Shown piece by piece: positions 4,845 through 63,956 of a DNA stretch of 64,000 bases; positions within the stretch are counted from its first letter, which is position 1, and each line of letters starts with the position of its first letter. The notes under the pieces were generated by a model. The model saw only the letters and a list, made by a program, of their open reading frames with translations. It was not told the DNA's origin and did no database searches. A program made the translations under genes and the position numbers. Origin of the DNA: Deltaproteobacteria bacterium (lineage in GTDB: Bacteria; UBA10199; SPLOWO2-01-44-7); contig JAUSII010000035.1 of NCBI GenBank assembly GCA_030648035.1, forward strand, positions 15,611 to 79,610, read 5' to 3'.

Positions 4845-4853
4845 GAGGGGAAT

Positions 4854-7019
4854 ATGCGATTTTATAAAAAATATTTTTCAGTTCTGTTCTGTCTCGTGGG
4901 GATATTATTTTCTATGAGGGCTACAGCCGGACCAGAAGTGTTTAAAATGAAATCAAGCGGCGAGATCAATGCCGGCGGGAGATTTTACCTTCCCGGCCAG
5001 CTTCCCAGAACCCAGAGAGCGGAGTATGAAGAGTATCGCGATCTGCCCCAGCAGTTTTATCTGGAAAATCTCAATTTGAATCTGGAGAGTAAAGATCAAC
5101 AAAAATATCTCGATATCACAGCTACCGAGGCGGGCGCGCAGGATCAGAATTATTCTTTAACTGCTTCGGAATTGGGCCTTTACCGTTTTGAATTCGAATG
5201 GGATCAGACGCCGCACATCTTCTCCACCGATGGTCGGATGCTCGGCACGACAACAAGTCCCGGCGTCTACACTCTTCCGACGCCGCGCCCCACCGGCAAT
5301 GATTATAATAACGCACCCATTATTGACAAAATTGCCGTCCGCTGGGACACCGCCCGCTTTCTCTTCTCCTACGACCTTGGGAAGTATTGGGATGTCAAAG
5401 GGGAATATAAATGGATTGATAAAAGCGGCGATAGACCGATGGGGATGGCTTTTGGGAGTCCCGGGATTAATTTTCGTGAAATTTTGGAACCGGTGGATCA
5501 GAATGTCCACAATGTCCGCTTCACGGCCGGCATGAAAAAGGAAAAATACCAGCTTCAATTCAGCTATGATTTCTCCCTGTTTCAAAACGCCCTGAATCGC
5601 GTCATTTCGGATAACCCTCTTGCGGCTACCAATGGTGCTTTTGTCCCTTCTGCCACCGGAGGCAACAGTATAGAGGCCAGCGGACAGACCTCTCTGCCGC
5701 CTGGCAACATGGCCAACACTTGGAATTTCGCAGGCGGCGTGAATTTGCCGATGAACACCCGTATTAACAGTTCCTTTTCCTACAGTCTGCGCCAGCAGAA
5801 CGATTCTTTTTTGCCGCACACAAACAACCCCAATATTCCTTCAGGCAATCTGGCTCTCCCAAAATCGGGCTTGGATGGACAAGCGATGACACTACTTTAC
5901 AATTTTAGCGTGACCAACCGCCCTGCCGATAGCGTAAAGCTGACAACAAAGTATCGATATTTTCATTTGAGCGATAGCAGCAACATTTTGACTTTTCCAT
6001 CGCATGTTGTGAATGATCGGACATTGGTGAATAGCAGTCTCACCGCAGAACGATTCCCTTTTGATAAACACAACGCAAGTATGGATGCGCACTTTCAGAT
6101 TTTAGATCCACTGGAAGTTACCGTGGGGATGGGATGGGAACGTTGGGACCGTAGCCCCCAACGTGAAGCCCAGACAACCGACGAATATGCACCTCATATT
6201 TCGATGGATATAACACCGTCCGACTGGACCCTGATGCGCGTCACCTATACTCCTTCAATCAAAACTGTTGCCTATTACAATGTGGAGCTGATTCCGGCTC
6301 AAGAAAAACTGATGCGTAAATTTGACGAAGCCAGTCGCGATCGGCAGAAGGTCGATTTTTTTACCCAGTTCACGCCACTGGATATTTTTCAGATAAGTTT
6401 CAACGGAGGCATCATCAACGATTATTATCGAAACTCGGTTTATGGATTGCAGAACAGTCAAACTTGGTCGGTCGGAACCGATTTAAGCTGGAAACCGTTT
6501 GAACCTCTAACTATTTTTGGAGGTTATGTTCGTGAACAATATTCCGCCAGACAGGCTTCTCAGTATCGTGAACCGACTATTTTGGAGAATACGCGCTATG
6601 CTTGGGTAGCCAACACAAACGACATTATTGATACCGTTCGGGTCGGAGTCGATGTGGAGATTATTCCCAACAAACTGACTTGGAGCGGCAATTGGGATCT
6701 TTCACGCGAATGGAACAGAATGTATGCGAATAATCCGCAAACTCCCACAGGAGGAACGGCGGCGCAGAACGCTTCCGCTACGGCGTCTGATTTTCCGGCG
6801 ATCACCAGCACCCTCAACCGTCTGGAATCTGATTTGCGCTACAATATTAACAAATCATGGAATGCCAAAGTGGCCTATGTATTTGACGATTTTCATATCA
6901 ACGATTTTAGAACCAACGGCCTTTTGCCCGCCACGCAAGGCGATATTTTCTTGGGCAACGAGTTGCTCAACTACGCCGCCCATATGGTCGTGATGACTGT
7001 CGGGTATCGGTTTGATTAA
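4854..7019 (+). CDS. MtrB/PioB/MtoB-family decaheme-associated outer-membrane beta-barrel
   Basis: 721 aa with a signal peptide and Tyr/Asn/Ser/Gly-rich beta-strand periodicity throughout. It starts 10 nt after the decaheme gene, with an AGGAGGGG SD. Confidence 0.75.
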   Translation: MRFYKKYFSVLFCLVGILFSMRATAGPEVFKMKSSGEINAGGRFYLPGQLPRTQRAEYEEYRDLPQQFYLENLNLNLESKDQQKYLDITATEAGAQDQNYSLTASELGLYRFEFEWDQTPHIFSTDGRMLGTTTSPGVYTLPTPRPTGNDYNNAPIIDKIAVRWDTARFLFSYDLGKYWDVKGEYKWIDKSGDRPMGMAFGSPGINFREILEPVDQNVHNVRFTAGMKKEKYQLQFSYDFSLFQNALNRVISDNPLAATNGAFVPSATGGNSIEASGQTSLPPGNMANTWNFAGGVNLPMNTRINSSFSYSLRQQNDSFLPHTNNPNIPSGNLALPKSGLDGQAMTLLYNFSVTNRPADSVKLTTKYRYFHLSDSSNILTFPSHVVNDRTLVNSSLTAERFPFDKHNASMDAHFQILDPLEVTVGMGWERWDRSPQREAQTTDEYAPHISMDITPSDWTLMRVTYTPSIKTVAYYNVELIPAQEKLMRKFDEASRDRQKVDFFTQFTPLDIFQISFNGGIINDYYRNSVYGLQNSQTWSVGTDLSWKPFEPLTIFGGYVREQYSARQASQYREPTILENTRYAWVANTNDIIDTVRVGVDVEIIPNKLTWSGNWDLSREWNRMYANNPQTPTGGTAAQNASATASDFPAITSTLNRLESDLRYNINKSWNAKVAYVFDDFHINDFRTNGLLPATQGDIFLGNELLNYAAHMVVMTVGYRFD

Positions 7020-14470: not shown

Positions 14471-15181
14471 ATGGTTAAAGCACCCCCCGTTCATTGTCAG
14501 ACCTGTCAGAGTCGCGGAGAGGGTATTTTCTGCGATTTAAGCGCGGAACATCTCAAAGAGCTTGATGCGGCAAAGACGACAAACCATTACAAGCCGCATC
14601 AGGTTATTTTTCATGAGGGGAATCAACCTCAGGGGCTGCATTGTGTTTCCTCCGGAAAGATAAAAATCTACAAGATGGATGCACAGGGGCACCAACAGAT
14701 TGTCCGTCTGGCGGGGCCGGGTGACGTGATGGGGTATCGTTGCCTGCTCACGAATGAAGGTTATTCCGCTACGGCGGAAACATTGGAAGAGGCGACAATC
14801 TGCTTTATAAATAAAGAGACTTTTTTGCATATCATCGAAACACATCCTGTAACCGCTTTTCATATCCTTTCCTCTCTGGCCAAAGATCTGGGGCGCGCTG
14901 AAAATCAGACCATGAACATGGTTCATAAAAATATCAGGGAGAGGTTGGCGGAGTTATTTCTCGTTTTCCACAAAAAATATGGAAAAAAGACAAGTCAGGG
15001 GATTGAATTGGACATCCTTCTTTCTCGCGAAGAGATGGCAGAGCTCATCGGCACCACTCAGGAATCGGTTATTCGTCTGATCAGCGAATTTAAACAGGAC
15101 GGCCTGATTGCGGTGGATGGCCGGCATATCACCCTTTTGAATATCAAAAAAATAATGGACCTCGCCAACCTTCCCGATTAA
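14471..15181 (+). CDS. Crp/Fnr-family transcription regulator, paralog 1
   Basis: cNMP-binding-type beta-roll and C-terminal HTH (REEMAELIGTTQESVIRLISEF). N-terminal Cys cluster C9-x2-C12-x8-C21 plus conserved internal Cys (GYRCLL), as in Fe-S-sensing FNR proteins. Confidence 0.8.
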   Translation: MVKAPPVHCQTCQSRGEGIFCDLSAEHLKELDAAKTTNHYKPHQVIFHEGNQPQGLHCVSSGKIKIYKMDAQGHQQIVRLAGPGDVMGYRCLLTNEGYSATAETLEEATICFINKETFLHIIETHPVTAFHILSSLAKDLGRAENQTMNMVHKNIRERLAELFLVFHKKYGKKTSQGIELDILLSREEMAELIGTTQESVIRLISEFKQDGLIAVDGRHITLLNIKKIMDLANLPD

Positions 15182-16467
15182 GGCCGCAATTCGTAAATCA
15201 TCCACTCTGAAAAACTTGTCGGTCCGGCATGCTTGGGCTGGTCTCCATCCCAGAGTTCAAACGAAACGTAGCCCACATCTGTAAGGGGGGCTTTGTTGTC
15301 ATTCGAAGGAGCGCGGGATCGTTTCAAAATAACGTGCCATTCCCCCTGGTCATAAACGCCATTGGCCAAAACACCGTTGTCTTTCCATTGCCAGAGGTCG
15401 ATCTTTTGGGAAGAGCTTCCAATTCCCAAATAGGGGAGATCTGCGGGGTTCGAAATTTTGTCCATCGGAAGTTGAATGGCCACCCCGTCATTTTGATTGG
15501 AATCTCTGTCGGCTTTGTCGTCTGCCCATCGGAGATAAAAAGCGACCTCTTCCTCTGTATGAAGCGCCTGCACTGTTATCCACTCTGTATTGCCCGGCTC
15601 ATGCCAAAGCGGCTTTAAAAAGACGGGAATTTTGGGAGACTTGGCCCAGGCTTCTTCCTTATAGTTCATGGGAATTTTGCCGTTTATCTTGTTGATGATG
15701 AGCAGGTTTCTTTTCGGATTGGAAGGATCGTAGTCCTTGGGAAACGGTTTTTGTATCGACTGGATGTAGTGGACCAGCGACCACAACTCTTTTTTGGTGA
15801 AAGTCTGTTCATAGCTGGGCATCGGCGTTCCGGGAACGCCAATCATCAGTGTGCGATAGATATCTCTGGGAAGATTGCCCCATTTGAGTGGTCCTTCTGT
15901 CAGATCGCGTGGTGCAATGCGGTCGCCCCAGACATCTTTTAAAACAATGGCTCCGGGACCATCCCCTTTTCCTCCCGGACCATGGCAGGCAATACAGCCC
16001 CTCTTCTCATACAATTGTCTTCCTTCTTGTATCGATTCGGGTGTTGTCTTGGTCTCTTCTGGAATATCGATCGGTGCCCCCTGTTTTTCGCTCGAGAGCT
16101 TGGGGGAAAGGGTTTTGAAATAGGTCAAAATGGAATACCAATCGTTTGTTTTGAGCACATCCCAGCCCGGCATGGAGGAGCCGGGGATTCCCATTTTCAT
16201 GGTTTGCAAAAGATCGAGGTCAGTGGGTATCAGTCCGCGATGGGTCCGGTATTTGAAAATGCCGATGGTGAAATCTCTCGGCTTCGGCCAGAGCAAACTG
16301 GCGGCGGGTCCTTTTCCATCCCCCTGATTGCCGTGGCAGGAGGCGCAGTGGACTGTATACAGTGCTTTGCCGCGTTGCATGGAAACTTCGCTGCTGGAAT
16401 CGCGGCACGATTTTTGGCAAGAGGTTGTGAGTAGAAGCAGAGCGACCAGCAAAAGATTTTTTTTCAT
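15178..16467 (-). CDS. Diheme cytochrome c fused to an EB_dh/DOMON-like (ethylbenzene-dehydrogenase gamma-type) heme-binding domain
   Basis: Signal/lipoprotein-like N-terminus and two class-I-type sites (HCASCHGNQGDGKGP, GCIACHGPGGKGDGPG). The C-terminal part reads ITVQALHTEEEVAFYLRWADDKADRD...DGVAIQLP...IDLWQWK, typical of EB_dh-like domains. Confidence 0.55.
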   Translation of the reverse strand: MKKNLLLVALLLLTTSCQKSCRDSSSEVSMQRGKALYTVHCASCHGNQGDGKGPAASLLWPKPRDFTIGIFKYRTHRGLIPTDLDLLQTMKMGIPGSSMPGWDVLKTNDWYSILTYFKTLSPKLSSEKQGAPIDIPEETKTTPESIQEGRQLYEKRGCIACHGPGGKGDGPGAIVLKDVWGDRIAPRDLTEGPLKWGNLPRDIYRTLMIGVPGTPMPSYEQTFTKKELWSLVHYIQSIQKPFPKDYDPSNPKRNLLIINKINGKIPMNYKEEAWAKSPKIPVFLKPLWHEPGNTEWITVQALHTEEEVAFYLRWADDKADRDSNQNDGVAIQLPMDKISNPADLPYLGIGSSSQKIDLWQWKDNGVLANGVYDQGEWHVILKRSRAPSNDNKAPLTDVGYVSFELWDGDQPKHAGPTSFSEWMIYELRP

Positions 16468-21115: not shown

Positions 21116-22381
21116 TTGAAAAATGGACCTGTTTTTTTGAAGGGATGTTTTTTTCTCCTTTTTTTATTTTTTTCTCCTCTAAGCCTCCATGCGGCGGATT
21201 ATAGCGTTGATCTTTTGTCCATTGGTCAGGTTCGCAAAGCTCCCATCACCAACCAACAACAGATTCCTGAAAATGGTTATGTAGGTGGCACAGCCCATTT
21301 TGAAAAATGGAATTTTTCAAATCAGACCAACATGCGTTTCTTTCGGGATTTCGACAGCAAACTGGATGAATATGATCTCTACCAGACCGTTTTTCATCTG
21401 GAACCTGCAAAGGCATTGACACTTGATTTGGGAAGACAGTTCGTTAATCAGGGATTCATGGTGGAAATTTTGGATGGGATTCAGGCGACTGTCATTCCGG
21501 AGGAGCATGTTGCTGTCACTGGTTTTTCAGGTATTCCCCGGAGCATGGAATTTGGACAATTCAGAAAAAATGATCTTTTATTGACGGGCTTGTCGGTCGG
21601 TTTGAAAAATGTGGCCAGGACAAAGGCCTCCGTTCATGGCGCCTGGCGCTCCAACAATCTACATATCATGGATCTGAACAGCAATGATCAGGTGCAGGTG
21701 GGTGGAAATTTTTCACACCAGTTTGCGGTTAATATGATGCCGATGTTTTATAGTTTGGCGGAGTATGATACCACCGGAAAAGTTTTTAATACTGCCACGG
21801 TCGGGTTTGACCTCTACCCCTCCTCACGTTTTTCAATAAATGGTGAGGGAAATTATTACAACTTAAGCCGGGATCTTGACCTTCAAACCGTTCAAGCCAC
21901 TTATTCCAAGGGGCCCACGTTGAATGGGCGTTTTGCTTTCACTTGGAAAGTCGTTCCGCAGTTTCTCAATCTGGTTCCCAGTTACACTTTCAACCGGATG
22001 GGAGTCACGGCAACGAATGATTTTAAAAATGCCCATCAAGTCGATGCCGCTCTTCAACTGTTGCTGGAAGACGTGGGTCTTCGTGTGGAGCCGGCGTATT
22101 ATTATGCCAAAAGTTTTGGCGGAAGTTTGAAAGGGGCGAGGCTCGGTCTCCATAAAACATTCAATGACCGGTTGTATGCCGATTTGACTTTCGACTTTAC
22201 AGCCTACAAAAAAATTACCAACGACAATGACAACGCCTACTCCACCATTTTTTGGACCGGTTATGAGGTGGCGAAGGGGCTGACTCTTTCCGGAGGAATG
22301 GAATACAACAAGAACAATCTGTTTGATAAAGATATCAGGGGCTCTTTCAGACTCGATTATCATCTGAATCGTGGGAGTTAA
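21116..22381 (+). CDS. Predicted outer-membrane beta-barrel (porin partner of the cytochrome cluster)
   Basis: Signal peptide ending LSLHA-AD. Alternating hydrophobic beta-strand periodicity, rich in Tyr/Gly/Asn/Phe. TTG start with a GGGGAGGGA SD. No family recognised by eye. Confidence 0.45.
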   Translation: MKNGPVFLKGCFFLLFLFFSPLSLHAADYSVDLLSIGQVRKAPITNQQQIPENGYVGGTAHFEKWNFSNQTNMRFFRDFDSKLDEYDLYQTVFHLEPAKALTLDLGRQFVNQGFMVEILDGIQATVIPEEHVAVTGFSGIPRSMEFGQFRKNDLLLTGLSVGLKNVARTKASVHGAWRSNNLHIMDLNSNDQVQVGGNFSHQFAVNMMPMFYSLAEYDTTGKVFNTATVGFDLYPSSRFSINGEGNYYNLSRDLDLQTVQATYSKGPTLNGRFAFTWKVVPQFLNLVPSYTFNRMGVTATNDFKNAHQVDAALQLLLEDVGLRVEPAYYYAKSFGGSLKGARLGLHKTFNDRLYADLTFDFTAYKKITNDNDNAYSTIFWTGYEVAKGLTLSGGMEYNKNNLFDKDIRGSFRLDYHLNRGS

Positions 22382-47690: not shown

Positions 47691-48413
47691 ATGTCGAAAC
47701 CCTCCTTTTTTCATTGCAAGGAATGCACTTCGAAAGAGGGAAGCGTCTTTTGCGATCTCAAAGAGGCCCAGCTCGATATTATGGATGAGGCCAAGATATG
47801 TAATGTTTACAGGCCCCATCAGATGATTTTTTATGAAGGGAATCTGCCGTACGGTCTCTACTGCATTGTCTCTGGAAAAGTAAAAATCTATAAAATGGAC
47901 AAAGAGGGTCACCAGCACATTGTGCGTTTGCTGGGGCCGGGTGAGATGGTTGGCTATCGCTGTCTCTTGGCGAATGAACCCTACTCTGCCACGGCGGAGA
48001 CTTTGGAAGAGACGCAAGTCTGTTTTATCGACAAAAAAAGTCTGTTTCATATTTTGGAGAGCCATCCTGCCACCGCTTTCCATGTGATGTGTTCCTTGGC
48101 CAAAGATCTGGGCAAGGCCGAATATCAAATGGTCAACATCGTACACAAAAATATTCGTGAAAGATTGGCGGAGCTGTTGCTTGTTTTTCTCAAAAAATAT
48201 GGAAAAAAAGAAGAAAAGGGTATTCGATTGAATATCTCTCTCACGCGCGAAGAGATGGCGGAGCTTATCGGCAGCACGCAGGAGTCGGTCATTCGTCTCA
48301 TGAGTGAATTTAAACAGGATGGTATCATTGCCGTGGATGGACGCAGTATCACGATTTTGAATGCCGAAAAACTCGTCAAAACGGCTAATGTTTCCGACGG
48401 CTCCACTGCATAA
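47691..48413 (+). CDS. Crp/Fnr-family transcription regulator, paralog 2
   Basis: 153 of 236 positions (about 65%) are identical to the 14471-15181 protein in an ungapped hand alignment. Same N-terminal C-x2-C-x8-C cluster (CKECTSKEGSVFC) and HTH (REEMAELIGSTQESVIRLMSEF). Confidence 0.8.
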   Translation: MSKPSFFHCKECTSKEGSVFCDLKEAQLDIMDEAKICNVYRPHQMIFYEGNLPYGLYCIVSGKVKIYKMDKEGHQHIVRLLGPGEMVGYRCLLANEPYSATAETLEETQVCFIDKKSLFHILESHPATAFHVMCSLAKDLGKAEYQMVNIVHKNIRERLAELLLVFLKKYGKKEEKGIRLNISLTREEMAELIGSTQESVIRLMSEFKQDGIIAVDGRSITILNAEKLVKTANVSDGSTA

Positions 48414-48774
48414 TGGTGTAGATTAAAAAAAGACCACCGCCGAGCAGGATAAGCAGAGGCAAAACCCAGATGGTCAGATTCATTCCCTTCGGCTTGGGTT
48501 CCAGCAAAATCCATTCGCCATAACGGTCAACAAAGTAGTTGAGAATTTGTTCTTCGCTTTCTCCCTGTTCCAGTTTTTCACGGACTGTTTTTGTCATGTT
48601 CTGGGCCAGTTCAGATGGGGAATCGGAGACCGGAATGCCGCGGCAGACGGGACAACGCAGTTGATCGGCGATTTGACGAGCACGCTGGTCGATGGAATCA
48701 ACGCCCAGCGCCAAACGTCCGACGCCTAAAAAAATTCCAAAACAGAAAACAAAAAATAACAGGGTTTTATTCAT
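48385..48774 (-). CDS. ccmH: Cytochrome c maturation protein CcmH
   Basis: Signal sequence, LRCPVCRG motif and C-terminal TM helix. The ATG overlaps the ccmG stop (ATGAATAA). The 3' end overlaps the convergent fnr/crp-2 by 29 nt. Confidence 0.8.
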   Translation of the reverse strand: MNKTLLFFVFCFGIFLGVGRLALGVDSIDQRARQIADQLRCPVCRGIPVSDSPSELAQNMTKTVREKLEQGESEEQILNYFVDRYGEWILLEPKPKGMNLTIWVLPLLILLGGGLFLIYTIMQWSRRKH

Positions 48775-49282
48775 GGAGCCCTTGCCCAATCTTTCTTTCC
48801 AGGTAATCGGCGGTCATGATGCCGGAAAATTTGTCATAAATTGTTCCGTGGGAATCAATAAAAAAAGTTTCCGGAACGCCGCCAACGCCGTAATCGATTG
48901 CCGTTTTACTCTCTTTATCCGTAAGGACCGTAAACGGTTCTCCATATTCTTTCAGGAATCTCTGTACAGATTCTTTTTTGTCCTGATAGACAACCCCCAA
49001 AAACACAACACCCTCTTTTTCATAAATTTTACGGCCTTCGTTGAAAATTTTGTGTTCCATAAGACAGGGGCCGCACCAGGTGGCCCAAAAATTCAGGACC
49101 ACAGGATGTCCCTCAAACGATTTCAGGGAGATTTCTTTACCCTCCAGCGTTTTAAGGGAAAAATCGGGGGCTTTTTTGCCGGTCATGGTGGAGGGAAGCT
49201 CTCTGGCATCGCGGGTCAAACCAAAAGCAAGGAGTGCCAGAATCGGAACAACAATGACAAAAAATAAAATCCAGCGTTTCAT
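48767..49282 (-). CDS. ccmG: Thiol:disulfide oxidoreductase CcmG/DsbE (TlpA family)
   Basis: N-terminal anchor helix and thioredoxin motif NFWATWCGPC. ATG 49282; the 115 upstream codons of the track ORF are not credible. Confidence 0.8.
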   Translation of the reverse strand: MKRWILFFVIVVPILALLAFGLTRDARELPSTMTGKKAPDFSLKTLEGKEISLKSFEGHPVVLNFWATWCGPCLMEHKIFNEGRKIYEKEGVVFLGVVYQDKKESVQRFLKEYGEPFTVLTDKESKTAIDYGVGGVPETFFIDSHGTIYDKFSGIMTADYLERKIGQGLHE

Positions 49283-53847: not shown

Positions 53848-54525
53848 TTATGCCTCCATTAACGGTCCAATCACCAAAAGAGTAGCCGATAAAAAGACGG
53901 CATCAAATACAACCAGCATTTGAAGCCACGACTGCAACTGATTGATCAGCGATTCTTCAAGCGAGAGTTGTGTCGCATAGACCGCCGCCAAAAGCAAGGG
54001 AGTGAGCATCGGAAAAAGGAGTAGCGGAAGCAGGGTGGCCTTCGCTTTTGTTTTGGCGATAAGGGCCGCGTAGAAAGTTCCCAGCGTGGCCACACCCAGA
54101 ATACCCAGAAAAAAGGTCAGGAAGAGAGAACCGATATTTTGCGGCGCGGGCAGGTTAAACAAAATAGTCATCAATATCATCACCAAAAAACCCACCAGTG
54201 CGATGAAAATAAAATTGGTCAGCAGTTTTCCCAAAAACGTGGCGTGATGGCTTCGGGAATACAAAAGAAGATGGTCGAAACAACCCTCTTCCATTTCGGA
54301 TTGATAGGATTTTTCCAATGCCAGAATGGCGCTGAAGAAAACCACGAGCCATAAAAGTCCCGGAGCCATTTTTTTAAGAAGTGTTGGGTCGGTGCCGATG
54401 GCAAAACTGAAAAGAAAAATAATGATGGCGCTGAAAAAGAAAAGGGTGTTGAGGATCTCTCTTTTTCTCAATTCAGAGAGAAGATCTTTGTGGCAGATGG
54501 CATAGAGAGCCCGCAGGAATTTCAT
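53848..54525 (-). CDS. ccmB: Heme exporter permease CcmB
   Basis: 225-aa polytopic protein between ccmA and ccmC. ATGA overlap with ccmA. Confidence 0.85.
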   Translation of the reverse strand: MKFLRALYAICHKDLLSELRKREILNTLFFFSAIIIFLFSFAIGTDPTLLKKMAPGLLWLVVFFSAILALEKSYQSEMEEGCFDHLLLYSRSHHATFLGKLLTNFIFIALVGFLVMILMTILFNLPAPQNIGSLFLTFFLGILGVATLGTFYAALIAKTKAKATLLPLLLFPMLTPLLLAAVYATQLSLEESLINQLQSWLQMLVVFDAVFLSATLLVIGPLMEA

Positions 54526-55196
54526 AGAACAATCTCCCCCGGCATCTCTTTGACGTTGCCAAACCAGGCCAAATGCCCTGCATTCAAAACAAGCGCTTTG
54601 TCACACAGGGGCAAGACCTCCGGATGGTCGTGAGAGGCCAGCACAACGGTAATCCCTTCCCGTTTCCATTCCGCAATCAGCTTGTTCATCAGGATTTTGC
54701 CGATCCGGTCGAGGTTGGTGTGGGGTTCGTCGAGCAGAATCAGCTCGCAAGGCATCGATAATATTTTGGCCAGCGCCAGGCGCTTCCGCATGCCGGTGGA
54801 AAAAGAGCCGACCGGTTTGTCTTTCAATCCCGCCAGCCCGACTTGGGCCAACACCTCCTCCATACAATGAAGCGAAATTTTTTCGCCACGCATATTGGCG
54901 GCAAATTTCAAATTCTCCCCGGCGGTGAGTGTTTTATAAAGCCCCAATTCATGGCCCAGCCATTGCATTTTTTTGCGGATGGCACCAACCCCTTTTTGAA
55001 GATTGTGCCCCAAAATTTCGCCCTCACCTGCGGAAGGCGAAAGAAGGGTGGCCATAATTTTAAGCAGTGTCGATTTGCCGCAACCATTGGGACCCAGAAG
55101 GGCGATACATTCACCGGACTTTGCCGAAAAATGGATATCCTTCAGCGCCCATTTGGAAACATAGCGATGACGAATTTTTTGGAGTTCAATAGTCAT
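54522..55196 (-). CDS. ccmA: Heme exporter ATPase CcmA
   Basis: Walker A GPNGCGKST, signature FSTGMRKR, Walker B LILLDEPHTNLD. Confidence 0.85.
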   Translation of the reverse strand: MTIELQKIRHRYVSKWALKDIHFSAKSGECIALLGPNGCGKSTLLKIMATLLSPSAGEGEILGHNLQKGVGAIRKKMQWLGHELGLYKTLTAGENLKFAANMRGEKISLHCMEEVLAQVGLAGLKDKPVGSFSTGMRKRLALAKILSMPCELILLDEPHTNLDRIGKILMNKLIAEWKREGITVVLASHDHPEVLPLCDKALVLNAGHLAWFGNVKEMPGEIVL

Positions 55197-55243
55197 TGTT
55201 ACAATGGATTTGTGTTGAGCGGAGAGGGATTGTCAAGCAGAGG

Positions 55244-57328
55244 TTAAGCAGGTATTTTTATTCTCCACCCATCGGCCACCGCTTGCACCGCTTTTTTGAG
55301 GTTCGGAAAAGATGTTTCATTGAGTTCTGTGAGAATAGCAACCCTTTCTTCCACCGGTCTGACTTTCAAAAGCTGGTGAAGATAATAGGGTAATTGTTCA
55401 CCAAAACCGTCGGTGCAATCCAGATATTCCAGCATCAAATAGGTCGCCTCCATATAGCGACGCCCCAGATATCTTTCCGGTTCCGCCAACGCTCCTGTGT
55501 TGCGCCCCTTCCAAACAACACGCTCAATATTTTTTCTGACAGTGGAAGAATTTAATAATCGCCTTAAATCTTTGGCGCGCGAAAGCCGAGCCAAAAAGAG
55601 ATCTCTGGCATCATCACTTTGCCCCTCAAAAAAGTTTTTTTGAATCGCTTCAAAAACGGTGGCGATGACCATTTCATGAACAGAGTCCTTAGAAGCGGTT
55701 TTGCTCATCAGTATTTCAAGGCGATGATGGAGGCGTATTAGCCTCACTTCCAAAAGACTCAAATCCTTCTCTTTAAACAGGCCTTGCACCGTCTTTTTTG
55801 CCTCGTCCTGAAGCATTAGAAGCGGTTTTGTGGAGGGTTTTTGTAAAATCATCTGAAAGTGGGCCCAAAGTGCCGCCCATGTTTCAGATAGTTTTTCCAA
55901 TTGCGGGTGTAAAAGAATTCTTCGAATAGCCTGGGGGATCCTCTCCTCAAACGCATTCTGAAAGGTCTCGAAATAGACCGCCATGTCGGAATCGACTGCG
56001 CACAAAGTTTTGTCCGTGGCGAGAACGGCCGCAAGAATCTTGTTCATCATGGGAGTGTCCAACATCCACCCTAAAAGGTTGTCTGTGAGCCATTTTTCAA
56101 AAGAGAGTCGAATGAGAGATTGATACTGTTCCCCTTTCATTTCTTTCTCCAAAAGGGCTAAAAAAGTGGCCCACAGATTCAGGCTTGTGGGATCTACATA
56201 AAGCTCTTTGGTAAAAATGGCTCTGAATTGTTCCTCGTATTTTTGAAGAGGGGGATGTTTTGAAAACAGGACAATCGCATTGCAAATCCACAAGGCTTTT
56301 GAATTGCCGCGGTTTGTCTCCTGAACCATGCTGGAGAAAAGTTCCTCGCGCCTTGTCTGATATTTAAATGCAAAATCAGGTATTTCATCCCACTTTCTGT
56401 CATGGGCCAGTTGTTCCAGTTTTTGAATGGCCGCGGCATTGTGTGTTTGCCATGCGGTCAATAAGGTATCGAGAATTATCCGTTGAAAATCGTCGGTGTC
56501 GAAACCGTTTCTTTGGAGGAAAACTTCCAGAACCCCCACCTTTTTAAAATCGTAGGCGGGATCGAGCATGGCCTGAATAATGGCGTGGCCAAACCAAGGT
56601 TCCTCTTCCTCTTTTGCTCCGATGAGAACCTGTATGCGATCAAAAAGAGTTTCCATTCTGGCATCGCTTTTCAAAATCACCCCCTTTAAAATTCGCGCCG
56701 GAATTTCAGCCTTTATTTCCGGAACCAGATCCTGAAAACGGGGGAGAAAACGGGTTTGAATGACTGCCGCGACATGACTAAAATGGGGCATGTCCAGATA
56801 GCCTGAAATAAATTCCTGAAACAGGGACTCCCAGAAAGCGTGAATATCCCCCCTGCCTCTAAGAATGGAGTGAATTTCAAAAAGATCGCCCAGAAGAATA
56901 TCCGATTTTTCCCCGTCGAGCGCTTTTGGAAAATGGACATCGACAGGTTTGTGCCTTAAAAAAAGAGCGTTCATTTCACGCGTGGCATAATCGGTATTTC
57001 CATCGTCCGGTTTTGGAAGCCCCACTTTTTGGGAGCGAACCCCCGGATCTTTTTCAAAGGTCGGGAGAATTGGGGTGATCGAGAAGCCGGGAGGAACACT
57101 TTTTCTGCCAACCTGCGGACCCGGTGCCGCCGCAAAAAGACGGGGTTGCATGGGAATGGGGTGAAGTGTGTCGATAAACAGTTTTGTCCAGAGTGGAAGT
57201 GGAGAAGAGACGACAAACAATGATTGCGACAAATCCGTTTCTGTCTGTGCGAGCGCTGTTTCCCCAAGATTCGCCATTTGAACGGCCGAGACAAAACTGG
57301 GGATGTTTGTAAAATCGATTGTGGCCAT
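55244..57328 (-). CDS. Hypothetical 694-aa helical-repeat protein with a Pro-rich N-terminal region
   Basis: Long clean ORF with no TM helix or signal peptide. The Pro-rich first ~130 aa are followed by an all-helical composition. Starts 2 nt after the preceding ORF and ends 47 nt upstream of ccmA. No family recognised. Confidence 0.6.
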   Translation of the reverse strand: MATIDFTNIPSFVSAVQMANLGETALAQTETDLSQSLFVVSSPLPLWTKLFIDTLHPIPMQPRLFAAAPGPQVGRKSVPPGFSITPILPTFEKDPGVRSQKVGLPKPDDGNTDYATREMNALFLRHKPVDVHFPKALDGEKSDILLGDLFEIHSILRGRGDIHAFWESLFQEFISGYLDMPHFSHVAAVIQTRFLPRFQDLVPEIKAEIPARILKGVILKSDARMETLFDRIQVLIGAKEEEEPWFGHAIIQAMLDPAYDFKKVGVLEVFLQRNGFDTDDFQRIILDTLLTAWQTHNAAAIQKLEQLAHDRKWDEIPDFAFKYQTRREELFSSMVQETNRGNSKALWICNAIVLFSKHPPLQKYEEQFRAIFTKELYVDPTSLNLWATFLALLEKEMKGEQYQSLIRLSFEKWLTDNLLGWMLDTPMMNKILAAVLATDKTLCAVDSDMAVYFETFQNAFEERIPQAIRRILLHPQLEKLSETWAALWAHFQMILQKPSTKPLLMLQDEAKKTVQGLFKEKDLSLLEVRLIRLHHRLEILMSKTASKDSVHEMVIATVFEAIQKNFFEGQSDDARDLFLARLSRAKDLRRLLNSSTVRKNIERVVWKGRNTGALAEPERYLGRRYMEATYLMLEYLDCTDGFGEQLPYYLHQLLKVRPVEERVAILTELNETSFPNLKKAVQAVADGWRIKIPA

Positions 57329-57330
57329 GG

Positions 57331-57639
57331 TCAGATTTCCACTTTATCGTCGGAGAGGGGCACTCGTTCCGGCAAAACAGCATTGGGAAGATAGAGATGT
57401 GGGGGAGCCACTTCATATGTTACCCATTCAGGAGAGATAGAGGTCATGCTTCTATCTTCTTTTCGATGATAAACGCTTTGTGCCAGTATCTCCCCACTTG
57501 TCCCCTGCAGAGCAAATTCCAAAACGCCCTCAAAATCGAGATATTTTATAAACCCACCAGCCAGCCAGCTGTCCAGCAGAGATTGAAAATTGTCCGCCGA
57601 TATTTTACCCCCGGGGAGTTGAGGTATGACCATCGTCAT
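57331..57639 (-). CDS. Hypothetical 102-aa protein
   Basis: Tightly packed between two hypothetical genes (3-nt and 2-nt gaps). GKISADNFQSLLDSWL...GVLEFALQGTSGEILAQSV faintly resembles DUF4388/PATAN-type small domains; this is speculative. Confidence 0.5.
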   Translation of the reverse strand: MTMVIPQLPGGKISADNFQSLLDSWLAGGFIKYLDFEGVLEFALQGTSGEILAQSVYHRKEDRSMTSISPEWVTYEVAPPHLYLPNAVLPERVPLSDDKVEI

Positions 57640-57642
57640 TTT

Positions 57643-58713
57643 TTAAAGCCCATCTCTCCTGGCAACAATCAAAATGGCCTGCTGTAAAAATTGTTGCCAC
57701 AATTGCAAATTCACCAACACCGCCAGTTGTGGATCCATATAGACAAAGGCCCCAGTCTTATTTGTTTTTTTACGCATGGCCAGCAGATGAAAATGCCTGT
57801 CATCGATGTTAATTTCCAGAATATCCCAACGACGGCCTTCTTTGTCCCACATGAAAATGCGGACCGCATGTTCTTTTCGCACGACACCATAGTTGATGAT
57901 CCCGGAGCTATCGGCATTTTTCAAAATAACCCAGAAAACCTGACGCAGAGGAAAACTCTCGGGATGATTGGTGGTCAGAGCAAGAACAAGCGGCCAGGTG
58001 ATCGCCAGAGGATTTTGCACGAGAGGTTTATTTTGCGCCGGTTTATCCAGCGTAATGACGAGTCCCTCCGCCATTCTTCCCGAGGCCATATTTCTTTGAA
58101 GACGCCTGGCCAGCAGATTCATATTATCTGGATTCAAAACTTCCTGTTCGGAAAGTGAAAGTCGATAGAGTGGCCTGCCAAGACCCATTGCAAAATTTTG
58201 CACCGCCGAATGAGCCGGATCAAAACGAATTTCCCAATGGACGATTTGTGTCTCGGTAAATTTTGTCTCGATGGCGGCTTTGAGTGCCGCAAACCATTTT
58301 GAGTCCACTTGTGAAGCGATGGCCGAAATATCGAGAGAGATAATTGCTTTGCGGGGCTGTCTGGCGGTGACATACCAGGTGAAAAGATCCATTGCCACCG
58401 CCTCTGGATTCAAATCTTTTACTTTCAACGTCAGACCCTTGGTGGAGGGGGTGCGTGTTGCTTCCGGGGGAGTGGTAGGCGCTTGTGGGAAAAGGGCGTC
58501 AGGCTTTGAAAGTCCGGGCCCGATAGTGGTGTCGGCGGCACGCCAAAGGGCGCTGGTGTTTGACGGTAATCTGCCTGCAACAGCTTCAATCATCCAAGCC
58601 GGTAATGTCGCGTCCACAATGGTATTTTGGAAGCCCTCTCCCTGTGCAAAAGGAAGCGTCAGGGGATTTGGAATGAGGGTCCCCAAAAAATTGAGAGGCA
58701 GTATCAATCCCAT
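57643..58713 (-). CDS. Hypothetical protein of about 356 aa
   Basis: The ORF is open to 58869, but that start would overlap the divergent gene. ATG 58713 (MGLILPLNF...) is preferred. Pro/Thr-rich linker (QAPTTPPEATRTPSTKG). No family recognised. Confidence 0.5.
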   Translation of the reverse strand: MGLILPLNFLGTLIPNPLTLPFAQGEGFQNTIVDATLPAWMIEAVAGRLPSNTSALWRAADTTIGPGLSKPDALFPQAPTTPPEATRTPSTKGLTLKVKDLNPEAVAMDLFTWYVTARQPRKAIISLDISAIASQVDSKWFAALKAAIETKFTETQIVHWEIRFDPAHSAVQNFAMGLGRPLYRLSLSEQEVLNPDNMNLLARRLQRNMASGRMAEGLVITLDKPAQNKPLVQNPLAITWPLVLALTTNHPESFPLRQVFWVILKNADSSGIINYGVVRKEHAVRIFMWDKEGRRWDILEINIDDRHFHLLAMRKKTNKTGAFVYMDPQLAVLVNLQLWQQFLQQAILIVARRDGL

Positions 58714-58742
58714 AGGTTCAATAGCTGTATCGGTCCCTTCAT

Positions 58743-58773
58743 AAAAAAGTTGCGTGCAATAAGCAACTTTTTT
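58743..58773. promoter_or_regulatory. 11-bp perfect palindrome AAAAAAGTTGC-N9-GCAACTTTTTT in a divergent gap
   Basis: Arms at 58743-58753 and 58763-58773 lie between the minus-strand hypothetical operon and the plus-strand PP2C-like gene. The shape is that of a bidirectional terminator, but the position is that of an operator. Confidence 0.5.
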
Positions 58774-58799
58774 TGAGATTGGACGATAAGATTTATAGT

Positions 58800-60095
58800 A
58801 TGAGCATAGCCACATTAACCCAATCTGCCGCAGGTGTTTTAATGAACCAGAGCGCTGTGGCCGCCGCACTGACTTATGTTCCTGTCGGTCAGATGGGTTC
58901 CGGTGCGGAATTGCTGGGCCAGTGTATGGCCCAGATCAATGTCTCTCATGGCGATGCTTTTATCAGCCAGCTTCATCTTTCGCGCCGTCTGGTCCGGGCT
59001 GGCGAGTCTTGGGATGCCACTCTGGCGCAGTATAGTCTGGGTCAGATTGGACAAAAAGTTCCCAAAAACCATTGGGCCTCTCTGGTAAACCAGTTTGTGG
59101 ACCTGCATATCCAGGAACGATTTGTGTCTCCCGATGATTTTTTAACCCGTCAGAGTGAAAGCCTTTCCCGTCTCGTCTCCCCAACAATAAATCGCGGCTC
59201 CCATTGGAGACTTATGAATGGAGGAGATTCGAACCGGCAGGAAATTGAAACGGCCCTGGCTCCTTTGCAGCGCCGACTTCAATTTAAAAAAGAAAAATTC
59301 GATCCGATGAATGATGATGTCGTCGCCGAGCTTTTGAAAGGTCATTTGACGCGCTATCGCGAATTGCTTCAGCCAGTGGCACGATCAAATATGGGGATCG
59401 CTGAAAATATCGGCAACGATCCGAGAAGGCCTTTGCAGCAGGATTTTGTCTGGGGGCATGAAGGGATGCTGGCGGATGGGACGCCGGTTGTTGTCTCTAT
59501 TGTGGCCGACGGCTTTGGTCCCGACGGTCATAAAGTCAGCCAATCTGCGGCAGAATCTTTTTCCAAGCGTTTTTATCATCTGATGCTTCTGGAGCCGACC
59601 CTCCCTGTTTTAACAATGATTGCCCATGCCCTTCAGTTCGCCGACGAAAATGTTTCCAGATTTTATCCGAATGGCGGCACCACCTTTTGTGCGTTTGTGC
59701 AGGTCGGCACCGAACAATACTTTATCAATATTGGCAACTCGCGTGGCGCCTTTCTCTCCGATGATCTCGATTGGACTGAGGTTGCCATAGCTCAGTCGGT
59801 CGATGATGGAAAACCGCTCCGTTTTTTGGGCTACCCATCGGCCAAGCAGGAAACAAATTCCTTTTTTCTTCCCTATCCCGATATTTTTGTGAAAGATCCG
59901 CGTGTGGGTGGTTTGGTTTATCTCGCCTCCGATGGATTATCTTGGGCAGATGATTTTGATGCCCTTTCGGTTCTGACAAAATCATCCAGTTTTGAAGCCG
60001 CCGCCCGTGCCCTGATCGCGCAGGCTTTGCAACCGGGCAGAAGAACTGAAAATATGGCCGTCTCCCTGATCCGCGTCCGTGCAATTTCCAGTTGA
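58800..60095 (+). CDS. PP2C-like (SpoIIE/PPM-fold) protein with partly degenerate catalytic motifs and a ~200-aa N-terminal domain of unknown function
   Basis: PPM-like motif series: VSIVADGFGPDGHKVSQSAA, GGTTFCAFV, INIGNSRGAFL (N where GDSR has the metal-binding D), LASDGL, TENMAVSLIRV (E for D). ATG 58800 is preferred over TTG 58773. Confidence 0.5.
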   Translation: MSIATLTQSAAGVLMNQSAVAAALTYVPVGQMGSGAELLGQCMAQINVSHGDAFISQLHLSRRLVRAGESWDATLAQYSLGQIGQKVPKNHWASLVNQFVDLHIQERFVSPDDFLTRQSESLSRLVSPTINRGSHWRLMNGGDSNRQEIETALAPLQRRLQFKKEKFDPMNDDVVAELLKGHLTRYRELLQPVARSNMGIAENIGNDPRRPLQQDFVWGHEGMLADGTPVVVSIVADGFGPDGHKVSQSAAESFSKRFYHLMLLEPTLPVLTMIAHALQFADENVSRFYPNGGTTFCAFVQVGTEQYFINIGNSRGAFLSDDLDWTEVAIAQSVDDGKPLRFLGYPSAKQETNSFFLPYPDIFVKDPRVGGLVYLASDGLSWADDFDALSVLTKSSSFEAAARALIAQALQPGRRTENMAVSLIRVRAISS

Positions 60096-60144: not shown

Positions 60145-62421
60145 ATGCAATCTGTCGAAACTACAAAAGAAATGGTGGCCCTCTCGTATGCTCGCATGCG
60201 ACAGAATCTGGAAGTCGTTCGCCAGAGATTAAACCACCCCTTAACGCTCGCTGAAAAAATTGTTTATGGTCATCTGGAAGATCCCCAAAATCAGGAATTG
60301 AACCGCGGCAAAAGTTTTCTGTTTTTGCGTCCCGATCGCGTGGCGATGCAGGATGCCACCGCGCAGATGGCGCTGTTGCAGTTTATGACGGCCGGTCGCA
60401 AACAGGCGGCGGTGCCGACAACGGTTCATTGCGATCATTTGATTCGCGCGCAGGTGGGGGCCCAGAATGATTTGATGGTGGCTTTGCAGGAAAATTTTGA
60501 AGTCTACGAATTTTTGCAAACCTGTTCACAAAACTACGGCATCGGTTTTTGGAAGCCCGGCTCCGGCATCATCCATCAGGTGTTGTTCGAAAATTATGCT
60601 TTTCCGGGCGGGCTGATGATTGGCACCGATTCACATACCCCCAATGCGGGCGGTTTAACGATGGTGGCGGTCGGTGTGGGTGGGGCCGATGCGGTCGATG
60701 TGATGGCCGGCATGCCGTGGGAAGTTTTGGCGCCAAAATTTGTAGGCATCAAACTGACCGGCAAGTTGAACGGCTGGACCGCACCGAAAGATGTGATTTT
60801 AAAAGTCTGCGAAATTTTGACTGTGAAGGGTGGCACCAATAAAATCATCGAATATTTTGGGGACGGTTGCGAATCGATTTCAGCCACCGGCAAGGGGACC
60901 ATCACCAACATGGGGGCCGAGCTGGGGGCTACCACTTCGATATTTCCCTACGACTCACGCGCTCGCGATTATCTGAACGCCACGGCACGCGGTGACTTGG
61001 CGGCACTGGCGGATCAGAATATGGACCTTTTGACAGCCGATGCCGAAGCGCTGGCCTCGCCGGAAAAACATTTCGACGAAGTTTTTGAAATTGATCTCTC
61101 CACGCTGGAGCCGCATGTGGTGGGGCCGCACTCTCCCGACGTCTCCCGTTCCATCTCCAAAATGAAGGAAGACGCTGAAAAAAACAAATATCCGAAAGAA
61201 ATTCGCTATGCGTTGATCGGCTCCTGCACCAATTCTTCTTACGAAGATATCGAACGCGCGGCCGATGTGGCACGACAAGCGGCAGAGCATGGCGCCAAAA
61301 CAAAAATTCCGTTGATGGTGACACCCGGTTCTGAACAGGTTTTTGAAACGATCCGCCGCGATGGCCAACTGGCCGCGCTGGAAAAAATAGGGGCCAATGT
61401 TTTGGCCAACGCTTGCGGGCCGTGCATAGGCCAATGGAAGCGCGAAGATCTAAAACAAAACGAGATGAACACGATCATCACTTCTTATAATCGCAACTTT
61501 CCGCGCCGCAACGACGGCAATCCGCAGACGCTGGCTTTTATTGCTTCACCCGAGCTGGTGGTGGCGATGAGTCTGGGGGGCACACTCGATTTTAATCCCC
61601 TGACAGATGAAATTGAAACAGACGGAAAACGATGGAAGTTGAAACCGCTGGCCAAGGCAGACGACATTCCCAAAAAAGGTTTTGTCCGTGCGGCCAAGGG
61701 TTATGTGGCACCGGCCCAAGATGCGGGTGAGGTGGCGGTGCAGGTCAACCCCAAGAGCGATCGCTTGCAGTTGTTGGCGCCGTTCACACCATGGGATGGA
61801 AAAGATTTCACCGATTGCCCTATTCTTCTTAAAGCCAAAGGGAAATGCACGACCGATCATATTTCACCCGCAGGGCCGTGGTTGAAATATCGCGGGCATC
61901 TTGATCATATCAGCGACAACATGTTTCTGGGAGCGACGAATGCCTTCACCGGAGAATCGGGAAAGGGGAAAAACATTCTGACCCACGAGACAGAAAAAAC
62001 ATTTTCCGAAATCGCGCGCGACTACAAAACCAAAGGTTTAAATTGGGTGGTGGTGGGTGATGAAAATTATGGCGAAGGTTCTTCACGCGAACACGCGGCC
62101 ATGGAACCCCGCTTTTTAAATGGCGTGGTGATTATTGTGAAAAGTTTCGCCCGTATCCACGAAACGAACCTCAAAAAACAGGGGATGTTGCCGCTGACTT
62201 TTGCGAACCCGGCCGATTATGACAAAGTGCAGGAGGAAGATCGCATCTCTATTCTCGGCCTGACCCACTTTGCCCCGGGCCATTCTTTGGAAGTGGTATT
62301 GCACCATAAAGATGGCCACGAAGATCGCTTTTTAGCCAACCACTCTTTCTCGGCCGAACAGATCGTCTGGTTTAGGGCCGGAGGCGCACTGAATTTAATC
62401 AAACAACAGGTGGGGACTTAA
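60145..62421 (+). CDS. Aconitate hydratase (monomeric ~750-aa, mitochondrial-like type)
   Basis: LRPDRVAMQDATAQMA, GTDSHTPNAGG, IGSCTNSSYED and ANACGPCIGQW cluster-ligand motifs. 758 aa. Confidence 0.9.
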   Translation: MQSVETTKEMVALSYARMRQNLEVVRQRLNHPLTLAEKIVYGHLEDPQNQELNRGKSFLFLRPDRVAMQDATAQMALLQFMTAGRKQAAVPTTVHCDHLIRAQVGAQNDLMVALQENFEVYEFLQTCSQNYGIGFWKPGSGIIHQVLFENYAFPGGLMIGTDSHTPNAGGLTMVAVGVGGADAVDVMAGMPWEVLAPKFVGIKLTGKLNGWTAPKDVILKVCEILTVKGGTNKIIEYFGDGCESISATGKGTITNMGAELGATTSIFPYDSRARDYLNATARGDLAALADQNMDLLTADAEALASPEKHFDEVFEIDLSTLEPHVVGPHSPDVSRSISKMKEDAEKNKYPKEIRYALIGSCTNSSYEDIERAADVARQAAEHGAKTKIPLMVTPGSEQVFETIRRDGQLAALEKIGANVLANACGPCIGQWKREDLKQNEMNTIITSYNRNFPRRNDGNPQTLAFIASPELVVAMSLGGTLDFNPLTDEIETDGKRWKLKPLAKADDIPKKGFVRAAKGYVAPAQDAGEVAVQVNPKSDRLQLLAPFTPWDGKDFTDCPILLKAKGKCTTDHISPAGPWLKYRGHLDHISDNMFLGATNAFTGESGKGKNILTHETEKTFSEIARDYKTKGLNWVVVGDENYGEGSSREHAAMEPRFLNGVVIIVKSFARIHETNLKKQGMLPLTFANPADYDKVQEEDRISILGLTHFAPGHSLEVVLHHKDGHEDRFLANHSFSAEQIVWFRAGGALNLIKQQVGT

Positions 62422-62468: not shown

Positions 62469-63503
62469 ATGGAAATCGATATTGCCGTTCGAACCCTCTT
62501 TGCAGAATTCCAGGAAGCTGTTTTCAGGCGTTTTGAGCTGGAACATCCACCAGATGAAAGCGGAACGTTTGTCAGCAAAACCCTTAAAGGCAAAAAATAC
62601 TGGTATGGTCAGCGCTATGTCGATGGCAAAATGGTCCAAAAATACCACGCTCCCTCTACGCCCCAAAATGACCACGATATTTTTAATATCCGCAAGGATC
62701 GGCAGGGGAAAAAAATATTATTAAGAAAATTGTTGGCGGATGAACAAAACAGGGCGGCTATGCTCAAGCGTGGCGGACTTCCGATTTTGGATCCGCTTAC
62801 CTCTTCTGTTTTGAAAGCACTTTCAGATGCCCTGCTTATTTATAAGGGGGGTGTTTTGGTTGGGTCTTATGCTTTTTGGGCTTATGCCGGTATGTTGGGA
62901 CAGCGCTTTGAAGGGGGACTTTTAAAAACACTGGATATCGACATGGCCTTCGATCCGTTAGTTGCCATGCCACTGGAGGTTCCCGTCTCTCTGCTTAAAT
63001 TGCTGAAATCGGTGGATGAACACTTTCGAGAGGTTCCCGGTTTTTTGCCCAAATATTCTCCCCATTCTTATATTGGACTTCATGGCTTGCGCGTGGATGT
63101 TTTGGCCCCTCTAAGGGGTAAACATCGTGGCAGTGTTCGGCTCGAAAAAATTATTGGAGCCGCGGCAGAGCCGGTTCGGTTTCTCGATTTCTTGATGAAA
63201 AAATCTGTTTCAGCGGTTTTGATCGGCCCGGGTGGCGGCATTCCGGTAACGGTTCCGCATCCGGCACGATATGCCGTGCACAAGCTGATTGTGGCCGCCA
63301 GAAGGCCGGTTACTGAATCGTCCAAAAGAGCCAAGGATATTGCACAAGCTGGAACTTTGATTGATATTTGTCTTAAAGAAGAACCTGCGGAATTAAAAAA
63401 CGCATTTCGGGAGGCGCAAAAAGAGGGAAAAAAGTGGCGAGCCTATTTATTGCAAAGTCTCAAACGGCTTCCAACCGAAACACAAGCCGCATTGTCGGTT
63501 TGA
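62469..63503 (+). CDS. Nucleotidyltransferase-fold protein (AbiEii/GSU2403-like minimal NTase)
   Basis: LVGSYAFWAYAG...LKTLDIDMAF fits the hG[GS]...D-x-D pol-beta-type NTase pattern in its AbiEii-like long-spacer form. The family name is from memory, not from a search. Confidence 0.35.
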   Translation: MEIDIAVRTLFAEFQEAVFRRFELEHPPDESGTFVSKTLKGKKYWYGQRYVDGKMVQKYHAPSTPQNDHDIFNIRKDRQGKKILLRKLLADEQNRAAMLKRGGLPILDPLTSSVLKALSDALLIYKGGVLVGSYAFWAYAGMLGQRFEGGLLKTLDIDMAFDPLVAMPLEVPVSLLKLLKSVDEHFREVPGFLPKYSPHSYIGLHGLRVDVLAPLRGKHRGSVRLEKIIGAAAEPVRFLDFLMKKSVSAVLIGPGGGIPVTVPHPARYAVHKLIVAARRPVTESSKRAKDIAQAGTLIDICLKEEPAELKNAFREAQKEGKKWRAYLLQSLKRLPTETQAALSV

Positions 63504-63644: not shown

Positions 63645-63956
63645 ATGGGATTCGGAACAACGAAAATTGGAAAGTCTGCATCAGTAGAGGTTGCCGCTCC
63701 AGTCGACGAGACGGGGAAAACTTCTGGGGGAAAAGGGGCAACGGCACCGGATTCGTTTCGATTTCCGACGCCAGCAGAGAAGCAAGTAGCGCAGCATGAT
63801 GAAACGGTGAGACTTGCACAGATTTCTAAGTGCACTTCTATGGCAATAAGACTTTCAACAATAGATCCAGAGGCGGCATTAAATATGCTACAAAATTGCA
63901 AGTCGCAACCAGACCCGATTTTAAGACTTTTTGGTTCTGGAGAGTTAAAAAAGTAA
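63645..63956 (+). CDS. Hypothetical small hydrophilic protein (103 aa)
   Basis: AAAGGA SD lies 8 nt upstream. The composition is natural-looking and hydrophilic, unlike the overlapping minus-strand ORF. AT-richer neighbourhood. No family recognised. Confidence 0.35.
   Translation: MGFGTTKIGKSASVEVAAPVDETGKTSGGKGATAPDSFRFPTPAEKQVAQHDETVRLAQISKCTSMAIRLSTIDPEAALNMLQNCKSQPDPILRLFGSGELKK

Follow-up and report, generated by a model that had tools for sequence, protein, structure and literature searches.

A stretch of 64,000 nucleotides (nt) of contig JAUSII010000035.1, from an uncultivated Deltaproteobacteria bacterium (the whole stretch is called the window here), contains at positions 55244-60095 a block of four genes between the cytochrome c maturation gene ccmA and the aconitase gene acnA. 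Their products are named here by length: p694, p102 and p356 on the minus strand, and the phosphatase-like p431 on the plus strand. We lean, by a modest margin over even odds, toward the reading that the block consists of taxonomically restricted accessory genes that occupy a variable slot, and not of a conserved multi-gene system. The sole conserved neighbor relation is that of the p694 family with acnA, which occurs both in the window and in a contig of a related organism. An earlier note on this DNA had asked whether the four genes travel together; as far as this is testable, they are not syntenic in any of three comparison loci (L084, L082 and L002).

The most informative of these is a contig assembled from Logan run SRR14366766 (L084, 1-3437). 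It carries P0008, a near-identical twin of the p694 relative P0004, in the order acnA, 85 nt, a divergent p694-like gene, and then a convergent cytochrome c/EB_dh gene; p356, p102, p431 and ccm are all lacking on the contig. The aconitase N-terminus encoded there is 74% identical to that of the window, and the cytochrome is 57% identical to the product of window gene 15178-16467, so the contig comes from a related organism, whose p694-like protein is down to 26% identity. Relative to this contig, p356 and p102 separate p694 from the promoter region that the two strands share, and p431 separates that region from acnA. The difference could have arisen by gain here or by loss in L084, in either direction. 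In a second locus (L082, 1-2273; GCA_030688705.1, JAUYJH010000083.1), the gene for the p694 relative P0005 is cut at the contig end and is followed after 8 nt by VIT1. In the nearest reference genome (L002, 135-4006; JACQMB010000148.1), the gap between ccmA and acnA is about 3.9 kb and holds five unrelated open reading frames (ORFs), which encode a 123-amino-acid (aa) membrane protein, a 473-aa lipoprotein with TPR and barrel-like parts, and secreted proteins of 148, 272 and 182 aa. The gap between ccmA and acnA is thus a variable slot, with different content in related genomes. The p694 relatives in L082 and L084 do not adjoin ccm, and ccmA in L002 stands without the block genes. A profile built from the alignment of p694 and its three relatives (A1) found no p694-family member at the other 80 aconitase loci. 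A 12-bit match to this profile upstream of a Chlamydiae aconitase (L081) proved to be an AhpD-like protein and was discarded as a chance match.

The lineage itself is narrow and poorly sampled. Among 185,579 species genomes, 593 relatives of the window's aconitase were found, the best at 73% identity; the top two are metagenome-assembled genomes (MAGs) labelled Deltaproteobacteria (73% and 66%), followed by Bdellovibrionales and Oligoflexia at about 63-64%. These figures point to a thinly sampled source lineage. Apart from the window, the locus of the block turned up solely in a contig from the assembly of run SRR13727527, and the collections searched contain no strain variants of it.

The layout of the block, as given by the ORF list, agrees with what had been described earlier, including the spacings of 3, 2 and 47 nt. 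On the minus strand lie p356 (57643-58713, 356 aa from an ATG; the open frame extends to a GTG at 58869, which would give 408 aa), p102 (57331-57639, 102 aa) and p694 (55244-57328, 694 aa), with 3 nt between the first two (57640-57642) and 2 nt between the last two (57329-57330). A spacer of 47 nt (55197-55243) separates the p694 stop from the start of ccmA (54522-55196, minus strand), which leads ccmABCEF and was assigned by its Pfam ABC_tran match and by CcmB on the next gene. On the plus strand, p431 spans 58800-60095 (431 aa from an ATG; an alternative TTG start at 58773 would give 440 aa), and acnA (60145-62421) follows on the same strand 49 nt downstream. The divergent intergenic region between p356 and p431 (58714-58799) is 86 nt long.

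All four ORFs are genuine genes with native composition, p102 being the weakest coding call. A codon score, defined as a per-codon log-likelihood and trained on 36 assignable window genes, gave 0.25 for p694, 0.12 for p102, 0.25 for p356 and 0.27 for p431 in the called frames (reference genes 0.27 ± 0.06), and about zero or lower in the remaining five frames of all four. The low-complexity N-terminal segments likewise score as coding, and the GC content of the block is like that of its surroundings. No tRNA and no flanking direct or inverted repeats were found around the block; together with the native GC content and codon usage, this led us to reject a mobile-element origin. The block has no Rfam match to an RNA element. 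Pfam, PADLOC and PHROG returned no family at E ≤ 0.1 for any of the four proteins, which bears out their earlier description as dark matter without an assignable motif, and no paralogs were found within the window or among the four themselves. Literature searches for the accessions and for orphan PP2Cs produced no relevant paper. The grand average of hydropathy is negative for all four proteins, and their N-termini lack the basic n-region of Sec/Tat signals, as judged from composition only and not from a signal-peptide or transmembrane predictor.

The largest protein illustrates how a gene of this kind can pass for an orphan. A word-indexed search of 5.8 billion proteins returned p694 itself only. 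An exhaustive phmmer (HMMER) scan of 1.84 billion representatives, in which p694 was the sole block protein scanned, found three distant relatives at 26-30% identity: P0004 (728 aa long and 26% identical, with E 7e-23 over residues 108-686), P0005 (an incomplete sequence, NCBI MDP2599965.1, encoded in a MAG labelled 'Deltaproteobacteria') and P0006 (from a Joint Genome Institute (JGI) metagenome). P0004 and its twin P0008 are encoded in the assemblies of SRR14366766 and ERZ27297570. The genome scan yielded no relatives of p694, and metagenome scans with the p694-family alignment and with CcmB found nothing. Orphan calls from fast searches thus need care, given that the word-indexed search missed these relatives. 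The label of orphan that the cluster had been given falls for p694, which has relatives, and in view of that miss is unproven for p356, p102 and p431.

Modeling places p694 among helical proteins. From the single sequence, AlphaFold2 gave an unusable model (predicted local distance difference test, pLDDT, 45), on which Foldseek was uninformative; with the four-sequence A1 alignment, the pLDDT rose to 70.6 and the predicted template-modeling score was 0.57. In this second model, residues 1-97 are disordered and about 30 helices run over residues ~114-687, with pLDDT 80-93 at residues 250-600, in keeping with the earlier description of a helical, scaffold-like protein. A Foldseek search of PDB and BFVD with this model returned only generic HEAT/ARM solenoids (E > 1e-3, template-modeling scores 0.1-0.2); the best matches are alpha-solenoids and are weak (E 3e-3 or worse, scores ≤ 0.21). 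The Foldseek check that had been proposed gives a resemblance in fold class only and no specific structural relative. No HEAT, ARM or TPR Pfam repeats were found in p694, and a PDB sequence search with p694 and the family profile gave only a non-significant match to the HEAT region of eEF3 (E 0.39). Most of the residues that never vary in the family are hydrophobic or structural, and His, Cys and Ser are absent from them; a role in binding or as a scaffold therefore suits p694 better than one in catalysis. As modeled, the p694 family is tiny, fast-diverging, cytoplasmic, all-alpha and solenoid-like, and its members retain 26% identity where aconitase retains about 74%. In a 1.1-kb contig from JGI 3300035310 (L083, 27-1095), a gene of the family is split into two overlapping ORFs. 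Each of them matches the family profile, so the split is suggestive of a frameshift or of an error in assembly.

The plus-strand gene encodes a divergent PP2C phosphatase, as had been proposed. From its sequence, p431 is a member of the PPM/PP2C superfamily over residues ~206-431 (59415-60095). It matches NCBIfam Stp1_PP2C_phos (NF033484) at E 6.8e-7 with 29 bits, below the equivalog cutoff of 230 bits, and no PP2C-type Pfam family was found at E ≤ 1. Residues 221-419 match PDB entries for PstP (1txo, 2cm1) at E 0.017-0.019 and MspP at E 0.26, and an annotated PP2C on a plasmid of Deinococcus sp. QL22 is 27% identical (pairwise E 2e-10). The protein contains the motifs RRPLQQD215, ADG237-238, GGTT, GNSR (Asn313), SDG378 and EN417. 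We placed D237-G238, D378 and E417 by the alignment with PstP, and D215 by the alignment with the Deinococcus PP2C and by comparison with the PstP N-terminus; the ligands of the PstP binuclear metal center are Asp25, Asp38/Gly39, Asp191 and Asp229. At the core metal-ligand positions, four of five are unchanged and the fifth is a conservative change of Asp to Glu (E417), which suggests that p431 is probably an active Mn/Mg-dependent Ser/Thr phosphatase. Asn313, in GNSR in place of GDSR, aligns with the Asp that is the third-metal ligand of PstP, a change that concerns the third-metal site only. The N-terminal region (58800-59414, aa 1-205) is covered by no family or PDB match. In the word-indexed search p431 found itself only, and such searches missed p694 relatives at 26% identity.

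The remaining two proteins have fewer distinguishing features. p356 is basic (isoelectric point (pI) 9.5), with a Pro/Thr/Ala-rich N-terminal region of about 100 residues followed by a mixed domain. It retrieved itself only among all 4612 word-sharing candidates of the word-indexed search, and no plasmid, phage or viral relative was found; residues 278-342 have weak matches to a DNA ligase OB domain (NCBIfam, E 0.011) and to uL24 (E 2). p102 is acidic (pI 4.55) and has no match in Pfam, NCBIfam, PADLOC, PHROG or PDB and no plasmid relative. No other relative of it was detected, the large protein databases having been covered for it by exact-sequence cluster look-up only and not by similarity search. 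The faint resemblance to DUF4388/PATAN modules once noted for p102 was not recovered in Pfam at E ≤ 1.

The three large proteins share an unusual beginning. The first Lys or Arg is residue 49 in p694, 48 in p356 and 62 in p431, leaving 47-61 residues free of both and rich in Ser, Thr, Gln, Ala, Gly and Pro. By comparison, the median position of the first Lys or Arg is about 4 in 37 window genes, only one of which (a membrane protein) exceeds 29. In P0004, the N-terminus is less extreme, with its first Lys or Arg at residue 39 and 11 charged residues among the first 60. These presumably disordered tails may serve as a common recognition or regulatory tail.

The intergenic regions contain candidate regulatory features. 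In the 86-nt divergent region, at 58743-58773, lies a perfect palindrome with 11-bp arms, AAAAAAGTTGC-N9-GCAACTTTTTT, which as RNA would form a hairpin of -13.8 kcal/mol (z = -3.5); a promoter-like site on the plus strand follows at 58773-58801. The palindrome may be an operator, or a hairpin acting in a 5′ untranslated region or bidirectionally. It is single-copy in the window, and its 12-base core at ≤ 2 mismatches is not rarer than chance; a role as a regulon motif was rejected for want of a second window copy. The 47-nt spacer before ccmA contains a TTGACA hexamer (on the minus strand, the spacer reads CCTCTGCTTGACAATCCC...), and no terminator was predicted within it. Read-through from p694 is accordingly possible, and the suggestion that the p694 trio may be co-transcribed with ccm stands as a possibility.

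Under the reading of restricted accessory genes in a variable slot, p431 would be a cytoplasmic phospho-signaling enzyme, possibly co-transcribed with acnA, and p694 would be a protein-binding scaffold without catalytic residues. Several observations weigh against this reading. Only one p694 relative (that of L084) has readable flanks on both sides, and the absence of p356, p102 and p431 beside it does not make them absent from its genome. Distant relatives of these three proteins may also exist, given that the word-indexed search missed those of p694. The packing at 3 and 2 nt and the shared divergent promoter region resemble a functional operon. Finally, the Lys/Arg-free heads common to the three large proteins hint at a common mechanism. 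If the ordinary reading is true, the block adds a very divergent PP2C and a tiny new helical family beside aconitase, together with two taxon-restricted genes in an undersampled lineage; this is of value for annotation and holds no surprise. Beyond annotation, only the Lys/Arg-free N-termini and the recurrent neighborhood of acnA, iron and heme genes would be noteworthy.

A cohesive, lineage-specific phospho-signaling module is the best placed of the alternatives, possible and yet not probable. Here p431 would act on the products of the divergent operon or be regulated by them, with p694 as scaffold, p102 as adaptor and p356 as substrate or regulator. The divergent layout around an 86-nt region with a palindrome, the apparent translational coupling of the trio, a PP2C that is plausibly active, the solenoid-like model of p694 and the Lys/Arg-free N-termini of three proteins all fit such a module. 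However, it lacks the expected partners: no Ser/Thr kinase or FHA gene was found in the cluster, in the window or in the 1.6 kb past the window end, and neither a STAS antagonist nor a HATPase_c anti-sigma kinase was found in p102, p356 or p694 (Pfam, E ≤ 1) or among the scanned window neighbors. Furthermore, p694 homologs occur without the other three genes in L084 and L082, and acnA, not the PP2C, is the only conserved neighbor. The earlier view of a self-contained signaling or conflict module is not supported, with no kinase, FHA, STAS or anti-sigma partner in the window and no PADLOC match.

The block could alternatively provide accessory factors for iron, heme or cytochromes, with the trio co-transcribed with ccmABCEF and the p694 family acting alongside heme or Fe-S proteins. 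Since no terminator lies in the 47-nt spacer ahead of ccmA, co-transcription could occur, and the window is a cytochrome-rich island. A p694-family gene adjoins the gene for the Fe-S enzyme aconitase in both the window and L084, the L084 gene converges on one for a cytochrome c/EB_dh protein, and the L082 gene lies 8 nt upstream of the iron transporter gene VIT1, a weak hint. We nonetheless regard the idea as unlikely. There are only three contexts, and with so many heme genes in these genomes the association may have come about by chance. The linkage to ccm is seen in the window only; in L002, the gene ahead of ccmA points the other way, so that ccmA needs a promoter of its own there, and the spacer before the window's ccmA holds the TTGACA hexamer. 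The proteins themselves contain no heme, Fe-S or metal-binding motif, and no Ccm, TPR or thioredoxin family match of the kind expected of Ccm accessory proteins (CcmH/CcmI) was found in the four.

A separate question, compatible with any of the other readings (so that the probabilities need not add up to certainty), is whether p102 is functional at all. Either it is a gene coupled to p356 in translation, or it is what was once the C-terminal end of a 460-aa protein; as a non-functional element, it would be either a chance ORF or the p356 C-terminus cut off by a nonsense mutation. Its codon score is the lowest of the four (0.116, against a reference minimum of 0.110), it shares its reading frame with p356 with only TAA AAA between them (57637-57645), its start lacks good Shine-Dalgarno spacing, and it has no relatives. 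Conversely, the called frame gives the best score for each half of p102, an in-frame position is expected by chance in one case out of three, and L001, the second contig, assembled from run SRR13727527, has this TAA as well. On balance, we think it improbable that p102 is non-functional. We give a similarly low probability to an undescribed four-protein module in which the Lys/Arg-free tails would be a recognition signal used by all three large proteins, whether to direct export, to control degradation or to assemble on the p694 solenoid. In such a module p102 would be the adaptor or chaperone and the PP2C the switch, and shared transcription would connect it to aconitase and to the making of cytochromes.

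A locus for secreted effectors and a chaperone, with three substrates carrying unstructured, uncharged N-terminal export signals and p102 as the chaperone, would account for the Lys/Arg-free heads of 47-61 residues rich in Ser, Thr, Gln, Ala, Gly and Pro on the three large proteins, and for a 102-aa protein of pI 4.55 encoded between two large ones. The fast divergence of p694 relative to housekeeping genes is also typical of effectors. However, no secretion-system gene lies in the 64-kb window, the organism resembles a free-living respirer, and the N-terminus of P0004 is less extreme; we consider such a locus very unlikely. An anti-phage defense or conflict system is the least credible reading, since its few favorable signs (a variable slot between conserved genes, rapidly diverging proteins and an NTP_transf_8 gene 2.4 kb away) are set against the absence of any PADLOC-DB 2.0 match at E ≤ 1 for the four proteins (the outcome of the DefenseFinder/PADLOC check proposed earlier, run with PADLOC), of any nuclease, NTPase, TIR, SIR2 or other effector domain, of mobile-element hallmarks in genes of native codon usage, and of any defense, phage, plasmid or viral relative except the generic PP2C on the Deinococcus plasmid.

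The window as a whole is a cytochrome-rich respiration island, and its source looks like an uncultivated respiratory generalist, seemingly a free-living respirer. Its respiratory genes include nosZ, nosD and two ABC-transporter genes, NnrS, and a porin-cytochrome pair of the MtrAB/PioAB type. The latter module, at 2415-7019, encodes a secreted protein of 424 aa that has a single CXXCH and matches no Pfam family, an MtrA-like cytochrome with 10 hemes, and an outer-membrane barrel of the MtrB/PioB kind (E 2.5e-84). Also present are multiheme cytochromes, a cytochrome b/c fusion, FeoB, NrfD, malic enzyme, 2-oxoacid:ferredoxin oxidoreductases, Rnf, ApbE, hemA, a radical-SAM enzyme and ccmFECBA. 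Two CRP/FNR regulators (cNMP_binding and HTH_Crp_2) are encoded at 14471-15181, beside nnrS and near nos, and at 47691-48413, beside hemA. ORF 21116-22381, which follows the gene for a 13-heme cytochrome of 829 aa, encodes a 421-aa secreted protein without a Pfam match, and ORF 48692-49267 encodes a 191-aa basic protein, also without one; the 55-60 kb block is therefore not the window's sole dark matter. Just 3′ of the aconitase gene lies a nucleotidyltransferase gene of the NTP_transf_8 family (62469-63503, Pfam E 2e-47), followed by two unassigned ORFs of 103 aa (63645-63956) and 297 aa (beyond the window end, L086), and then by a coproporphyrinogen oxidase gene (L086).

Comparison with known systems gives partial likenesses for individual proteins. 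The modeled helix run of p694 resembles the HEAT/ARM scaffolds (the importin-beta family and the PP2A A subunit) in fold class only, and unlike them p694 has no significant structural match and no Pfam repeat. Over its last ~225 residues, p431 can be aligned to the catalytic domain of the PP2Cs PstP, MspP, Stp1 and IreP and matches their motifs at R-x-x-x-Q-D215, A-D237-G238, GTT, S-D378-G and E417-N, so that its most likely function is that of a metal-dependent phosphoprotein phosphatase. Unlike canonical PP2Cs, p431 has GNSR for GDSR, EN for the final DN and a 2-residue insertion in its DGxGG motif. PstP has one transmembrane segment; the 205-residue N-terminal region of p431, in contrast, is novel and seems to have none. 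The Deinococcus PP2C sits in a VWA-STK-FHA-PP2C operon (STK, serine/threonine kinase), whereas p431 has no adjoining Hanks kinase or FHA gene. With RsbU, RsbP and SpoIIE, p431 shares a regulatory N-terminal region followed by a C-terminal PP2C, and a small acidic protein of about 100 aa encoded nearby, but its N-terminal region has no match to the known domains of RsbU and SpoIIE.

For the block as a whole, the closest likeness is to ORFan genes in variable inter-operon slots, with which it shares few or no relatives, native composition and a slot whose content varies. It differs from typical ORFans in that p694 keeps its place next to acnA in at least two organisms, and in that three of its proteins share a Lys/Arg-free N-terminus.

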